Below, piece by piece: positions 1-5,655 of a stretch of DNA of 5,655 bases (positions are counted from its first letter, which is position 1; every line of letters starts with the position of its first letter). Origin of the DNA: a virus (taxonomy: Duplodnaviria > Heunggongvirae > Uroviricota > Caudoviricetes); IMG/VR virus record IMGVR_UViG_2802429221_000003, positions 1 to 5,655 of that record; one strand, given 5' to 3'. Position numbers and translations under genes: made by a program. The notes below the pieces were generated by a model that saw only the letters and a list, made by a program, of their open reading frames with translations, did not search any database and had not been told where the DNA came from.

Positions 1-117
1 ACCTATCACGTCAATAAGAATATCATCCTGCATCGACTCGTCATCATAATAGCCAATACTCTCCATAAAGGCCGAAAAGTCGGCCCTGTCGGCAAATTTG
101 AGTGTTAAATCTTTCAT
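1..117 (-). CDS. Hypothetical protein, N-terminal 39 codons only; translationally coupled to stf; not recognisable as lambda Tfa
   Basis: The ATG at 117..115 overlaps the stf stop by one base (TAATG). The frame is open to the window edge and translates as MKDLTLKFADRADFSAFMESIGYYDDESMQDDILIDVIG. It occupies the position where lambda has tfa, but the sequence does not match the Tfa N-terminus as I recall it ([20 protein letters not shown]...). Confidence 0.5.
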   Translation of the reverse strand, partial: MKDLTLKFADRADFSAFMESIGYYDDESMQDDILIDVIG

Positions 118-2330
118 TAGATTGACTCCCCCATCTGGGCATCAGTCAATGCCTTGTGCCAAATACGCAGATTTCGAACGTGTCCAAATAGGTGACGGTT
201 GCCGGATGATGATTGACCACCAATATTAATGAAACCTCCTGTATATTTGTGTTTTTTATAAGGAGAAACTGCCTTAGCACCAATATTACCGTTAACCACA
301 ACACACAACTCTCGACTTTCTGTGAATCTAAAGCCGATAATGCATTTTCTCTCTGGTCGTTCTACAACACTTTTATATTCTGTTTTAGTGCCTTTACCAT
401 TTGTAATGATTGCGCGTGCTCCCAACGATGTATATCCCAAATACATATAACTTTCATCTGCAATTTCAGTTGTATCTCCCGTAGTGGAAATATTAAGAAT
501 ACGTGCGCTACCTTCTTTGTTTGGCGATTCATCCCAATTGGTATTAACTTCTGCTAATGAACTAATAGCGGGATTGCACCAGTTTAGAGAAATGGGGACC
601 GTTACAATATCGCTGGCGCGTGTTACAGGGGATGCGCCTGTTATAATAAACGATGAAGCGCACGCCCCACCTTCAACTTGAGGGGTCGCAATATAAATAT
701 AATCATCCGCGCCAGTGCCCACTCCTTTTGCCGGGGTATACTGAACCATTCCACCTATCATATTTTCTGTATCAAGTGCCTTAATTGTCGCCTCAAAAAA
801 GATCCATTTGCTTGCTTCATCTTTAACAGCCCTAGCAGTAATGCGATTAGCGGCCACCCCCGTCTTATCAATAGATAAATCTGTCGTATTTAAGTAAGCG
901 TCACCTAAGAATGTGTAGGTAGAACCATCATAGTTTTCAAATCGTAATCGACATCTTAAATTTGGAGTGCCACTTTGCACTCTGCATGATACGGTTACAT
1001 ACTTTTCTCCGCCTGTTACGTCAAAACCTTTACTGCCAGAAACGGTTACTATGTTAATCGATGAAGTTTGCCCTACCATTTCTGGTTTTAATGTAAATTT
1101 TGCGTACTGGAATCCGAAATCATCTACACCTGATGCACTTAAGATCATATTTGACGACTTGTTCCATTTAGTCGGATTGGTTGAATTGATTAGCAGGTTA
1201 GTTCTCTGCCCTTCAATAAGCAGGCCGTTGCGTTCAAATCGTGCTTCATCGATTGCAGCCTCTGTCAGCATCCCCGCCTTATTAATATAGGTTGCTTTCG
1301 ACGCTCGTTTAAATTTAACAACCTTATCGCTAGGCATTGTTATTTCATCATCACCAATAACAATCTTTTTATATGATGGCGAAAAGCCCGCAATCATATC
1401 CAGTGAATCGTTAAACGGTATCCACACATCAGGCAGCGGCTGTAAGACATATTTATACGGCTCTGCTGCCTGGCTTGCATACTCTCTGGCTGCGTCTTCA
1501 CTTGCTTTAGCTGCCGTCTGGCTTGCTGCCGATGCTTTCGCTGAGTTCGCAGCCGCTGTTTCGCTCGCCTGTGCGTTGGTTTCACTGGTTTTTGCTGCTT
1601 TTTGGCTGTTGGCTGATGCAGTGGCAGAAGTAGCCGCCGCACTTGCAGAACCAGCTGCGGCACTCTCGCTTTCGGCTGCTGCATCCTGACTGCTTTTCGC
1701 CGCAGTTTCGCTGGCTTTGGCATTCGTTTCGCTGGTCTTCGCTGCCGTCTGGCTGGACTTTGCGTTGGTTTCGCTCGTCTTTGCTGCTGTCTCGCTGTTT
1801 TTCGCGTTGGTTTCTGATTTTTTGGCTGCTGTCGCGGAGTTTGCCGATGCAGTCTGTGAGGCCGCTGCCGCCTGGGCGCTGTTAGCTGCATTCGTTTCTG
1901 AGCTTTTCGCCGCGTTCTTCGATGATGCCGCAGCCGTTTCGGATTTCTTTGCCGCCGCTGCGCTCTGAGAGGCGGCTTCGGCGTTGCGTGCCGCTTCTTC
2001 CACCATTTCCTCAAAACGACGCAATGCCTCCGGCATGACATCATCTTCCGTCATGGCACCGAGAAAATCATTCAGCGTACCTGGTCTGGAGCCTTCATAG
2101 ACGGTAATGGTCCCGGCATGTGAAGGCGGAAAACCTTCAACCAGCAGGATGACGCTGTACTGGCCATACTCAACATCCATGCTGTAACGCCCGGCTTCAT
2201 CCGGATTTTCTGAGGCCAGCGTGTTCACCACCACCGTGGTGCTGTTACGTTTTGCTTTCAGCTGGATTGTGCAGTTCTGTACCGGTTTACCTGCACCGTC
2301 TTTCAGTACACCTGAAATCTTTACTGCCAT
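117..2330 (-). CDS. stf: Side tail fiber protein, mosaic: lambda Stf-like N-terminal domain, heptad-repeat shaft, non-lambda distal domain
   Basis: Long minus-strand ORF with TAA at 119..117. The first ~100 residues (MAVKISGVLKDGAGKPVQNCTIQLKAKRNSTTVVVNT...YSMDVEYGQYSVIL...GFPPSHAGTITVYE...) match the lambda Stf N-terminus. I place the start at the ATG 2330..2328 (MAVKIS, preceded by GGGGTG) rather than the GTG at 2336 used by the track. Residues ~120-292 are Ala/Ser/Thr-rich heptad repeats. The C-terminal ~445 residues sit in low-GC DNA and lack the His-rich GAHAH-type motifs of the lambda fiber tip. Confidence 0.85.
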   Translation of the reverse strand: MAVKISGVLKDGAGKPVQNCTIQLKAKRNSTTVVVNTLASENPDEAGRYSMDVEYGQYSVILLVEGFPPSHAGTITVYEGSRPGTLNDFLGAMTEDDVMPEALRRFEEMVEEAARNAEAASQSAAAAKKSETAAASSKNAAKSSETNAANSAQAAAASQTASANSATAAKKSETNAKNSETAAKTSETNAKSSQTAAKTSETNAKASETAAKSSQDAAAESESAAAGSASAAATSATASANSQKAAKTSETNAQASETAAANSAKASAASQTAAKASEDAAREYASQAAEPYKYVLQPLPDVWIPFNDSLDMIAGFSPSYKKIVIGDDEITMPSDKVVKFKRASKATYINKAGMLTEAAIDEARFERNGLLIEGQRTNLLINSTNPTKWNKSSNMILSASGVDDFGFQYAKFTLKPEMVGQTSSINIVTVSGSKGFDVTGGEKYVTVSCRVQSGTPNLRCRLRFENYDGSTYTFLGDAYLNTTDLSIDKTGVAANRITARAVKDEASKWIFFEATIKALDTENMIGGMVQYTPAKGVGTGADDYIYIATPQVEGGACASSFIITGASPVTRASDIVTVPISLNWCNPAISSLAEVNTNWDESPNKEGSARILNISTTGDTTEIADESYMYLGYTSLGARAIITNGKGTKTEYKSVVERPERKCIIGFRFTESRELCVVVNGNIGAKAVSPYKKHKYTGGFINIGGQSSSGNRHLFGHVRNLRIWHKALTDAQMGESI
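1461..1979 (-). repeat. In-frame tandem array of ~22 degenerate 21-bp units encoding heptad repeats (consensus roughly K-x-S-E-T-N/A-A) within stf
   Basis: Translation shows consecutive 7-residue units (KKSETAA, KSSETNA, KNSETAA, KTSETNA, KSSQTAA, KASETAA ...). The plus strand shows the corresponding periodic gct/gcc-rich 21-nt units (e.g. ...tttcgctggtcttcgctgccg...). Confidence 0.8.
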
Positions 2331-2341
2331 ATTCACCCCAC

Positions 2342-2368
2342 AAAAAAGCCCGCCTGAACCGGCGGGCT
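2342..2368 (-). terminator. Intrinsic-terminator-like hairpin plus T-run downstream of lom, immediately before the stf ribosome-binding site
   Basis: Minus strand reads AGCCCGCC-GGTTCA-GGCGGGCT followed by TTTTTTGTGGGG: an 8-bp perfect GC-rich stem, a 6-nt loop and a 6-T run. It lies 27 nt after the lom stop and ends ~11 nt before the stf ATG. Confidence 0.6.
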
Positions 2369-2394
2369 GTCATAACACTGTGTTACCTGGCTAA

Positions 2395-2994
2395 TCAGAA
2401 TTTATAACCGACACCCACGATGAAACCGTCAGTGCGCCAGTCACCACTGCCGGAACCTTCATAAGCAATATCAATGGCCAAGGATTCGGTCGGGTTAAAC
2501 TGCACGCCAGCCCCCCACGCCAGAGACGTGTTGCTGTGGCGACCGTCATCACTTCCGGTCAGCACATCGTGCGTTTTCTCCTTGTTGTCAGTTACGCGGA
2601 GGTAATCCCCGGAAAAAGTCGACACACGGCTGTAAGCCATACCCGCCATCGCATACGCGCTGAACCATTCATTCACGCGCACAGACGGCCCCGCCATCAC
2701 GCTGAACCAGCGGTTACGCACGGAATCTTCATGCCAGCGGGTATCGCTGTAACGGGTAAGCTGGCGATTCTTGTCTCCTGCATAGCTGAATGACGTCACC
2801 ATCCCCAGTGTGTCCGTAAACTCATAACGGTATTTCACGTTAATCCCGTTCAGATCATCGCTGCCGGGAACGTTGGTCCGGGCATGAAGATACCCCGCGC
2901 TCAGCGTGGACTGATGTTCAGACGCCCATGCAGGCACACCGGATACGGCCAGACAAATGGCTGCGGACAAAATGGCGGCATAAAGTTTACGCAT
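2395..2994 (-). CDS. lom: Lom outer membrane protein (Ail/Lom/OmpX/PagC family 8-stranded beta-barrel); lysogenic-conversion 'moron' gene
   Basis: ATG at 2994..2992 ([24 protein letters not shown], a signal peptide ending in AWA) with an SD 4 nt upstream. The ~199-aa product ends in ...GVGYKF, the terminal aromatic residue typical of OMP beta-barrels. It is near-identical to lambda Lom as I recall it. The track's ORF start at 3033 is a 13-codon upstream extension (MTPFFIAEKREVL) that runs through the terminator hairpin and is unlikely to be real. Confidence 0.9.
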
Positions 2995-2998
2995 AAGT

Positions 2999-3004
2999 AC
3001 CTCT
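2999..3004 (-). promoter_or_regulatory. Shine-Dalgarno sequence for lom
   Basis: Minus strand GAGAGG, 4 nt upstream of the lom ATG at 2994..2992. Confidence 0.5.
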
Positions 3005-3018
3005 CGCTTTTCTGCGAT

Positions 3019-3043
3019 AAAAAAAGGCGTCATTTCTGACGCC
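3019..3043 (-). terminator. Intrinsic-terminator-like hairpin plus T-run just downstream of J and upstream of the lom ribosome-binding site
   Basis: Minus strand reads GGCGTCA-GAAA-TGACGCC followed by TTTTTTT: a 7-bp GC-rich stem, a GNRA-type tetraloop and a 7-T run. It lies between the J stop (3062) and the lom start (2994). Confidence 0.55.
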
Positions 3044-3061
3044 CGTTCTGGGTTATAAAAT

Positions 3062-5655
3062 TCAGCTGATACTGATACCTGCTGTGGATTTCTTCATCAC
3101 CACAACCAGCAGATCACTGATACTGGTTGTTGGTGTCCAGTCATTCGCTCCTGATGAAGATACGGTGAATGTCAGTGTCAGCGTCCCCTGTCCGGCAGGC
3201 ATATCTATAACCGAGGAAAATACGCCCTGAGCATCCGTCGTGGACTGATTAAAAATCTCCTGACCATTGCGGGTCACTCTTAACCGGCAGGTTGAATACC
3301 AGTATGACTGTTGGTTATTACTGTTGAAATTCTCATGCTTACCACCACGGAACAACACTGGCGGTATCATGACCTGCCGATCAAATTTCTGATCATCACT
3401 GATTCTTACCGTGATGGTGCCGCTGGCATAAGTGCTCGTGCGGGGGAAAGACTTGCTGACCGTTTTGACAATATCGCCTTCAATCTGGTTGGCTGACAGT
3501 CTCCCCTTAATCTGACAGTTCTCATTTATCGTGACGTTGTTGAGCGTCCCGGAGTTCGCATTCACGTTACCGCTGATATCAGCATTTCTCGCCGTCAGCC
3601 GCCCGTCCGGTGTCAGGGAAAATGCCGGAGGATTACCGCCGCTGGTAATGGTGGGAGCCGTCAGATATTTCAGGAACACTTCGTTCATGAATATCTGATC
3701 GCCCTGACCAACAAACATCGGCTTTGTGTTGCCATTCGCAGGATTAATCATCGCAATCCTGTCTGCCGCCAGCAGCACCTGACTCTGCATTCCTGCTGGC
3801 GTATTCTCAATACCGGCACCGATGCCCGCGATATAAAGGCGTCCGTCCTGCACCTGCTGCATCTTCACAGCCCACATGCTGTTCAGGTTATTATTTGTAT
3901 CAACCTGAACCTTCTGTATCTGCTGGATTGCCGCACTCTGGTCTTCCAGTTTCTTATTGACAGTCTGCGTGATTTCATTGCTGACATCCGTAATGGACGT
4001 CCTGATTTCAGTCAGGTCAGGCGCAAGCTGACCGTTATCAATTTGCGTCCACAGCTCCTGAGCCAGATGGGTTTTCCCTATCTCTCCTTTGAAAAAATCC
4101 AGATAGCCGGAAGCATCATCACTCGGCTGACCAACAGCCTCCACGAATGCCGATTTGCCAACGGTGTTCACACTGCGAACGTAAAAATAATAATCATGGC
4201 CCGGCCTGATATTGATACTGGCAGCTATCCAGTACAGCGCCGTGCCAAGATAGCGGGCTGTGGTTTCAACCTGCCTGATATCCGCAATCCGTTTTTCCGA
4301 GAACCAGAACTCAAACTGTACCGTCGGGTCATAAACCGCAAGATGCGGCGTGGCGGTTATCTGAAAATAGCCCGGTGTCAGCTCAATCCGAGACGGCGCT
4401 GCCGGTGCGGCAATCCGGAACGATACCGATGCCGGATCGCCCTGCTGTCCCCACGCATTTACCGCCCGGACTGTCAGCCTGTAGTTCCCCAGCGCCAGCT
4501 GCCTGAAGCGGTATGTGGTTTCCGCCGTCCGGGCCGTGCTGACCAGCCGCTCACTGCCGTCATCCGCTGCCACGGTCAGGCGAAGCAGGAAACTCACGCC
4601 CTTCACCACCTTCGGCGTGTCCCAGCGGGCCAGTACCTGATACTCCCCGCTGTCTGCGGTGACTTCGGCAGTCAGGTGCTGCACCGCTGGCGGCGTGACA
4701 CCATTCACCGTGCCGCTCTGGTCGCCGTCAAAGTGCGCCCCGTTATCCACGATGGCTTTTTTTTCCGGTACATGCTGCACGGCAGTGATGGCATACGTGC
4801 CGTCATCGTTCTCACGGATACTCACACAGCGGAACAGGCGCTGGCGCAACGTCGGCAACTTCAGCCCCCACACGCTGTATTCTGCAACGCCGTCAGGAAC
4901 ACGGCTCACTTTTACCTTCACGCCGTCGGTGACGGACTGGACCTCCACGCTGACCGGATTGCCACTTCCGTCAACCAGGCTTATCAGCGTGGTACCGGAG
5001 GATGGCAGCGTGATTTCACGGTCGAGCGTCAGCGTCCGGGTCTGGCTGTTCACCGCCAGCACGCGCCCGCCGGTGCTGATCCCCGCATAGTCATCATCAC
5101 AGATTTCAATGACATCACCCGGTACATGGCGAAGCCCTTCTGCGCCCACGCTGAAGTCCACGGTCTGCGTTTCCAGCAGCTCCGTTTTAATCAGCCACAG
5201 CCCGGCGCGGTGTGCCTGTCCCCGGCTGGTACAGCCAAAGGCATCCATCTTCGTGACGTTACGACCGTAACGGGCAATGGCCTGCGTGTCCTCCACAAGC
5301 TCTGTTGCCGTTTCCCAGCCGTTATCCGGGTCAATCCAGTTCACCTCAACGGCATTATGGCGGTCCTTCAGGGCGCTGAAGCTGTAGCGGAACGGCGCGC
5401 CATCATCCGGCATCACCACATTACTGCGGTTATAGGTCCACACCTTATCCGACGGTCGGTCCTGCACGAACGTCAGCGTCAGCCCGTTCCATACCGGCAT
5501 ACAGCGCATCGCCGAGCAGAAATCGCTGAGCACATCCCACGCCTTACGCTGTGTGGTCAGCCAGGCATTACAGGTGATGCGCGGCTCCGTGCCACCAAAA
5601 CCGTCCGGCACCGACTGGTCGCAATTCTGGCCGATGACATACAGCGCCCATTTGT
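3062..5655 (-). CDS. J: Central tail fiber / host specificity protein J, C-terminal ~860 codons; 5' end lies beyond the window
   Basis: Open minus-strand frame from the window edge to a TGA at 3064..3062; it stays open upstream of the track's start (codon 5611..5609 is GTG, preceded in frame by ...[14 protein letters not shown]). The translation ([27 protein letters not shown]..., FN3-like segments, ...[20 protein letters not shown]...) matches lambda gpJ as I recall it. The last ~150 residues look diverged. Gene order J-lom-stf is that of lambda. Confidence 0.9.

Follow-up and report, generated by a model that had tools for sequence, protein, structure and literature searches.

The side tail fiber gene stf of phage lambda is followed by tfa, which encodes the fiber assembly chaperone Tfa. 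Tfa, Mu gpU, and P2 gpG are Caudo_TAP proteins. They are small and acidic, and their genes occupy the slot directly 3' of the fiber gene, with a TAATG stop/start junction in lambda stf/tfa. In Tfa proteins, the region that binds the fiber varies with the fiber tip. Other fibers, e.g., endosialidase, T5 Ltf, DT57C LtfA and LtfB, and rV5 gp41, carry the Peptidase_S74 chaperone, which is covalently attached to the fiber protein and cleaved off. T4 gp38 and gp57A are chaperones, and gp38 of T2 and T6 is an adhesin. These proteins are small, are encoded adjacent to the fiber gene, and are needed for formation of the distal fiber. Two-protein or branched fibers are represented by DT57C LtfA-LtfB, phiEco32 gp14-gp15, and IrisVonRoten Gp22-Gp24.

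The DNA analyzed here, referred to as the window, is a stretch of 5,655 nucleotides from a member of the Caudoviricetes (IMG/VR record IMGVR_UViG_2802429221_000003, positions 1 to 5,655). In the ORF list, the genes of interest are all on the minus strand, and coordinates below refer to that strand unless stated otherwise. The 3' part of the J tail-tip gene (3062..5655) runs off the high end, where it is open to the edge, and has a gpJ annotation in the related prophage locus L001. Between J and stf, the ORF list places a lom-like outer-membrane protein gene (2395..2994, also given as 2395-3033), annotated as Lom in PhiR46_1 and PhiR49_2. This gene is variably present: it is found in the window as in lambda, and it is absent from the E. 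coli 2D relative, where J is directly followed by stf. The stf gene (117..2336) encodes 737-739 aa. Its true start is likely the ATG at 2330, based on the RefSeq start in L001. At the low end of the window is the ORF in the tfa position, the product of which is named S here. Its first 39 codons (1..117) are within the window, and it is a phrog_1361 protein of 93 aa in relatives.

Stf begins with the prophage tail fiber N-terminal domain (1938..2330; Pfam PF08400 phage_tail_N, E 5.5e-68), which is the anchor to the lambdoid tail. Next is an Ala/Ser-rich shaft of KTSETNAK-type repeats, read from the sequence (1461..2000; aa about 113-292). Two alternative-frame ORFs in these repeats, 1394-2044 on the minus strand (216 aa, Arg/Gln-rich) and 1717-1968 on the plus strand (83 aa), are by-products of the repeat composition and are not genes. 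The remainder of the protein, aa 300-739, is referred to as the distal module and is composed of a GTA-spike-like domain and a LamG-like end. The mid part of this module (624..1439; aa 300-571) begins with PLPDVWIPF and contains a GTA head-spike-fiber-like domain (aa 373-574; NCBIfam NF048003 GTA_spike_fiber, E 1.4e-16, 61.6 bits against a cut-off of 36). The mid part also matches phrog_1419. The C-terminal LamG/galectin-like domain (120..623; aa 572-739) extends from a TRASD motif to ...HLFGHVRNLRIWHKALTDAQMGESI. Within it, aa 676-734 match Pfam Laminin_G_3 with an E-value of 5.9e-4, below the gathering score. Peptidase_S74 (PF13884) is absent from the Stf of the window in a Pfam search.

Positions 601-1200 of the window share 87-89% DNA identity with fibers of virulent T5-like (VSe12, Baret) and T1-like (EC195, tuinn, swan01) phages. 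The last ~230 nt of stf, together with S, match the lambdoid phages PhiR46_1 and PhiR49_1. Because the mid module is T5-/T1-like and the end with S is lambdoid, DNA identity indicates that stf is a mosaic recombinant and that the exchange between temperate and virulent phages was recent. In some relatives, the fiber gene is broken by IS elements. In phage 4A7 (L089, 3376-5792), stf is split by three transposase ORFs that probably belong to a single IS element, and IS1A interrupts the fiber gene in E. coli SCU-172 (hit H24). S is stranded downstream of the split fiber gene in both.

The stf/S junction reads ...GGGGGAGTCAATCTAATGAAAGAT... on the minus strand. The stf stop codon (TAA, 119..117) and the S start codon (ATG, 117..115) share one base and form a TAATG overlap at 115..119. 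The earlier note had described this overlap, and reading the minus strand confirms it. S is thus in the tfa position, immediately 3' of stf, with the same junction as lambda stf/tfa. A GGGGGAG Shine-Dalgarno-like run within the end of stf (126..132), 8 nt upstream of the S ATG, is a putative ribosome-binding site for S. Since no promoter-like or terminator-like site was found between stf and S, the two are co-transcribed on one late transcript. Location downstream of a fiber gene and co-expression with it are features expected of a Tfa/Caudo_TAP protein, and S has both.

The visible part of S, the translation of 117..1, is MKDLTLKFADRADFSAFMESIGYYDDESMQDDILIDVIG and comprises 39 codons that are stop-free to the window edge. 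An open frame of this length occurs by chance in about 15% of cases and is not significant, and S is recognized as a real gene from homology, i.e., identical N-termini, the 2D coding sequence, and dN/dS, and not from frame length. The exact 39-residue N-terminus is present in 29 database proteins, 28 of which are 93 aa long. The E. coli 2D prophage (98% DNA identity) has a 282-nt coding sequence at the S position (WP_109897025.1, 'hypothetical protein'). A protein search returned 228 S relatives, and those that are named are called 'hypothetical protein' or 'Prophage protein'. Across 56 distinct S alleles, dN/dS is about 0.32. On these sequence comparisons, S is a genuine gene under purifying selection. 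The earlier note saw only the N-terminus and allowed that the frame might end within a few codons of the edge. Near-identical E. coli prophages instead complete S at 93 aa, with 54 further codons past the window edge. The full protein is acidic (pI about 4.1) and has a mass of 10.7 kDa. The stf-S end of the window (1-1200) matches, at least in part, 981 of 5,426 complete E. coli genomes.

S belongs to phrog_1361, which it matches over its full length (E 3.3e-46, 156 bits, residues 1-93 against positions 1-92 of the 92-position profile); phrog_18574 is also cited. Because phrog_1361 has no function annotation, membership names the family and does not explain S. A HMMER search over 1.84 billion cluster representatives recovered only 51 relatives, nearly all of 85-110 aa, and by this measure S is a narrow family without fusions to larger proteins. 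Single divergent S sequences used as queries retrieved 1-2 loci each, and the alignment of diverse members contains no conserved stretch of 7-10 columns. The S sequence has no N-terminal hydrophobic stretch and no evident signal peptide or membrane segment.

The earlier note had judged that the product does not resemble Tfa, and this now holds for the full protein and extends to gp38 and the other known fiber chaperones, with no such relation in Pfam, NCBIfam, hhalign, PDB, and fold searches. At E<=1, neither S nor any of 18 diverse homologues (n=19 in total) had a Pfam match, and PF13884 (Peptidase_S74) is likewise absent from S. NCBIfam, PADLOC, and a PDB sequence search gave no match for S. 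Alignment of the S family against lambda Tfa with hhalign gave a probability of 0.07%. An AlphaFold2 model of S, built with 19 homologues, is confident (pLDDT 87.4, pTM 0.74). The predicted topology is beta1-alpha1-alpha2-beta2-beta3-beta4-beta5, and the C-terminal tail that comes after it is less certain. The model resembles no solved fiber assembly protein, and a fold search with it returned no fiber chaperone or adhesin among the matches listed. Compared with Tfa, S has no sequence or profile similarity, is half the size, and is predicted to be a single small alpha/beta domain, although both are presumed to act on the distal end of the fiber. S also has no family or fold match to T4 gp38 and gp57A or to the gp38 of T2 and T6. 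Membership of S in Tfa/Caudo_TAP was considered, and the hhalign result and the lack of profile similarity in all 19 members speak against it.

S is tightly linked, at the gene level, to the distal module of the fiber, which is horizontally exchanged. In a reverse test, 80 IMG/VR loci were fetched via the fiber C-terminal motif alone. Over all fetched loci, which are mostly related E. coli prophages and not independent events, an S-HMM-positive ORF follows 169 of 170 LamG-motif fiber ends. The single S-less end belongs to a contig that stops 27 nt past the fiber stop codon. Deduplication left 100 distinct junction contexts, and the S start overlaps or abuts the fiber stop in 98 of them (59 TAATG, 38 with a 4-nt ATGA overlap, and 1 abutting). 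Because related E. coli prophages dominate the loci, lineage breadth is a stronger argument than these counts.

The fiber module and S are found together in lambdoid prophages and phages, including PhiR46_1 and PhiR49_2, and in the T1-like phage EC195. They are also found in the T5-like phages Baret, mar004NP2, AKFV33, and IrisVonRoten, in the Dhillonvirus Ioannina, in the Seuratvirus KurtStettler, and in the rV5-like phage JeffSchatz, where the lateral fiber is 1,479 aa. In the Aeromonas T5-like phage AhSzq-1, the module is only 27% identical, and the S-HMM match has an E-value of 8e-12. Escherichia ruysiae carries the pair as well. The distal module recurs behind quite different N-terminal anchors, with an S gene after each. 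Fibers with only the GTA-spike-like domain (RcapMu58, S-CAM4) are without S. A GTDB scan returned only E. ruysiae, with S, and an unrelated LamG-ended protein of Endozoicomonas, without S. In phage records, tblastn found S in 183 and the distal module in 226. AKFV33 orf136 matches the S HMM yet is not among the tblastn matches listed, and divergent copies of this kind probably explain some of the difference. S is therefore shown to be an obligate companion of one fiber distal module in at least seven phage groups.

Some records in this set are unusual. 'Campylobacter phage' records such as C12, C14, and A12a (MG0656xx) contain coliphage rV5-/T5-like modules with S at up to 100% identity, and 'Listeria phage LM 4-14-1' (OR84xxxx) has a B protein (described below) with an N-terminus 97.5% identical to the coliphage type. 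Both sets of records look mislabeled or contaminated. The 25-kb IMG/VR contig 2724679539_000001 (L005/L006) carries the fiber-S-B module twice, in inverted orientation, and this duplicate is possibly an assembly artifact.

A gene for a second fiber protein, B, comes after S in 88 of 96 usable contexts and starts 9-12 nt past it (e.g., L001 7375-8064, L002 5345-7096, L004 4406-5446). B has the N-terminal sequence MxTxTxIPxDIxxLK, and the copies scanned end in the Peptidase_S74 intramolecular chaperone. Among the matches listed, alignments of the 26-residue N-terminal peptide of B that begin at residue 1 are confined to records with the module or to close matches of such records; in other phages, they begin at residue 27 or later. 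From residue 27 on, this N-terminal region of B is reused in other fibers, such as DT57C LtfA, phiKT, and Dhillonvirus fibers. Judged from this distribution, the 26-residue peptide is probably a docking peptide. The remaining 8 of the 96 contexts have no B-type gene after S. S is found without B in JeffSchatz-type Vequintavirus, the phage isolate PhiR49_2, 4A7, E. ruysiae, two prophages (L117/L118), Ioannina, and AhSzq-1.

In lambdoid prophages, the last gene after fiber-S-(B) encodes a hydrophobic protein of 95-97 aa (L001 8090-8377; also L004, L118, L178, and L179), which would lie beyond the low end of the window. It belongs to phrog_1443, whose function is unannotated, and searches of Pfam, NCBIfam, and PADLOC gave nothing significant. 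It is probably a membrane protein and could be an exclusion or lysogenic-conversion gene.

The earlier note had suggested that the gene might be matched to a foreign distal domain of the fiber. This part was not borne out. S, LamG, mid-module, and B types were cross-tabulated over 72 unique combinations, with S clustered at >70% identity and LamG clusters <70% identical to one another. The lambdoid S type lies behind at least 8 LamG clusters and several mid-module types, and the prophage copies of this S type that were fetched share 92-99% identity with P0007. Conversely, LamG type 5 precedes S of three types, T5-like, lambdoid, or T1-like, depending on the phage lineage. Pairwise identities of S correlate (Pearson) at 0.15 with LamG, 0.26 with the mid-module, and 0.72 with the B N-terminus. 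The last value may merely reflect phage lineage. A match between S and the variable distal domain is rejected, as one S type serves at least 8 LamG types with a correlation of 0.15. By these identities, S follows phage lineage and is conserved, whereas the cassettes on either side of it vary. S thus differs from Tfa in that it does not co-vary with the variable domain. A gp38-type adhesin would vary with host specificity and with the fiber tip; S is conserved across receptor-domain variants, which is the opposite behavior.

A natural allele swap is observed in Vequintavirus. The first 700 aa of the fiber are 97-99% identical in JeffSchatz, AlexBoehm, and FV3, and the gene downstream of the swap is the same for both alleles. 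In the AlexBoehm and FV3 alleles, S is absent and the fiber gene is followed directly by the next conserved gene. Of these two, the AlexBoehm allele was scanned and has a Peptidase_S74 end (E 8e-14). In the JeffSchatz allele, the end is a LamG-type module, Peptidase_S74 is absent, and S is inserted with a TAATG overlap. DT57C LtfA and LtfB, products of the adjacent genes gp108 and gp107, are both described with an intramolecular chaperone (PMC4728585; PMC10713586), and DT57C is without S. The Vequintavirus swap and DT57C together indicate that S is present where the fiber end has no built-in chaperone. S and Peptidase_S74 thus have the same functional slot, although Peptidase_S74 is part of the fiber protein, whereas S is a separate and dissimilar gene. 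The B protein of the S loci carries Peptidase_S74 itself.

No functional work on S was found in the literature searched. The same locus type has been described in phages with two-part fibers. AKFV33 and mar004NP2 are discussed as having 'two-gene' fibers (PMC3326045, PMC6563131, PMC4728585), and in the passages on such fibers, the small gene in the middle is given no role. For AKFV33, the two genes are ORF137 and ORF135, and ORF136 goes unmentioned in the passages describing the fiber (PMC3326045). For mar004NP2, 'two genes upstream of ltfB' are noted, and the passage leaves the matter there (PMC6563131). Virion mass spectrometry of mar004NP2 detected the fiber and neither S nor LtfB (B) in what are shallow data (PMC6563131). 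In AKFV33, where only four gel bands were identified, the fiber was detected and S was not (PMC3326045). rV5 carries the other fiber allele and the EE09 fiber is without S, and proteomics of these two phages is silent on S.

IrisVonRoten (Bas32, MZ501075) encodes a 796-aa fiber (gp22), a 92-aa S homologue (gp23), and B (Gp24). Humolli et al. (2025) describe Gp22 as the proximal fiber with a C-terminal galectin-like domain and model Gp24 as a distal T-shaped fiber that attaches to the proximal fiber; gp23 goes undiscussed in the passages on this fiber (PMC11990801). In those passages, the proximal fiber is named 'Gp22' once and 'Gp23' elsewhere, and the annotation corresponds to gp22 (PMC11990801). 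In GenBank, gp23 is labeled 'tail fiber protein'. For T5-like, T1-like, and Dhillonvirus phages, O-antigen has been proposed as the target of this type of fiber (PMC8594841, PMC11990801).

The favored reading, with about an even chance of being correct, gives S a trans-acting role in assembly of the LamG-ended distal module. S, a 93-aa acidic, soluble alpha/beta protein, would then be a dedicated accessory of lateral or side fibers with a GTA-spike-like domain and a LamG/galectin end. The stop/start overlap would couple translation of S to that of stf. S may assemble or fold the LamG-ended module in trans, the job done by Peptidase_S74 in other fibers and by Tfa for lambda Stf. It would recognize the conserved core of the module, e.g., the invariant ...IGGQ..G.RHLFGH.RN.RIW... 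end, and not the variable receptor-binding surface, and core recognition would let a single S serve many receptor-domain variants. This reading follows from the independence of S from B, the swap with an intramolecular chaperone allele, and the tfa slot. The chaperone idea comes from context only, because the S fold resembles no known chaperone. The absence of S from the mar004NP2 and AKFV33 virion data weakly favors an assembly factor, and data this shallow are also compatible with a structural S. Other evidence pulls toward the structural side. S co-varies little with LamG and more with the B N-terminus, and the confinement of the 26-residue B peptide to module-type records, among the matches listed, fits docking of B on a fiber-S complex. 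The main rival, less likely than the assembly factor, is a structural adaptor or hinge that stays on the LamG-ended tip of the proximal fiber and would form or complete the docking site for this peptide. Such an adaptor would give a two-part or branched fiber, comparable to T4 gp35/gp36 between gp34 and gp37. It would account for the order fiber-S-B in 88 of 96 contexts, with B 9-12 nt after S, for the reuse of the rest of B, e.g., in DT57C LtfA, and for the 0.72 correlation with the B N-terminus. It also agrees with the joint-like conservation of S between two variable receptor cassettes, with the 'tail fiber protein' label of Bas32 gp23, and with an overlapping stop/start that could favor near-equal synthesis of S and fiber. 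S is, however, kept without B in JeffSchatz-type Vequintavirus (33 phage records, at least 95% identity) and in PhiR49_2, 4A7, E. ruysiae, Ioannina, and AhSzq-1. Moreover, the passages of Humolli et al. have Gp24 attach to the proximal fiber with gp23 undiscussed (PMC11990801), the phage for which branched-fiber attachment was inferred, DT57C, is without S (PMC4728585), and S went undetected in two virion proteomes, which is weak evidence. The roles of assembly factor and adaptor are not mutually exclusive.

Two further explanations find less room in these data. S is small, acidic, and function-unannotated, and fiber loci often carry cargo such as the 95-aa membrane protein downstream, so an unrelated accessory gene (a moron, anti-defense, or exclusion gene) riding with the fiber cassette was weighed. 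It is improbable: S lies within the late structural operon of virulent T1-/T5-/rV5-like as well as temperate phages, its start overlaps the fiber stop in almost all cases, and it is gained and lost together with one fiber module. Defense or counter-defense cargo would be expected to belong to a known family or to lie outside structural operons; S has no PADLOC family match and no evident signal peptide or membrane segment. Less probable still is a highly diverged member of Tfa/gpU/gpG (Caudo_TAP) or gp38, or a gp38-like receptor-binding adhesin. The lambda tfa position and the TAATG junction are shared, but 19 diverse members gave no Pfam or NCBIfam match, the hhalign probability with Tfa is negligible, and S, at 93 aa, is about half of Tfa (194 aa). 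Host specificity should be reflected in the sequence of an adhesin, whereas no gene of the locus is more conserved than S, and one S type accompanies at least 8 receptor-domain types. The assembly-factor reading can also be put more strongly. S could, somewhat tentatively, have a new small alpha/beta fold and be the founding member of a hitherto unrecognized class of trans-acting factors for fiber assembly, a generalist that folds or oligomerizes LamG/galectin-ended lateral fibers through their conserved core. In a more novel variant, S may stay on the fiber as a hub that recruits an optional second fiber and so gives rise to branched fibers.

The family itself was on record before, under phrog_1361 and in hundreds of entries named 'hypothetical protein', and its type of locus was also known. 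The new element is the evidence that S is an obligate, lineage-spanning partner of LamG-ended fibers that is not matched to their specificity. S may represent a new class of fiber helper. Fibers with this distal module are common, occurring in about 226 sequenced phage records. A helper role for S would fill a gap in the two-part fiber models of AKFV33, mar004NP2, and IrisVonRoten, in which the middle gene is unexplained. If S is instead a structural adaptor, it would define how the second fiber attaches. Host-range engineering by receptor-binding domain swaps usually fails without the correct chaperone. If S is a required generic helper, it should be carried along when LamG-ended tips are transplanted onto lambda-, T5-, or rV5-type chassis. 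If S is a true generalist, no chaperone would have to be re-matched when receptor cassettes move between temperate lambdoid phages and virulent phages of the T1-, T5-, and rV5-like groups, and these cassettes could be swapped freely.
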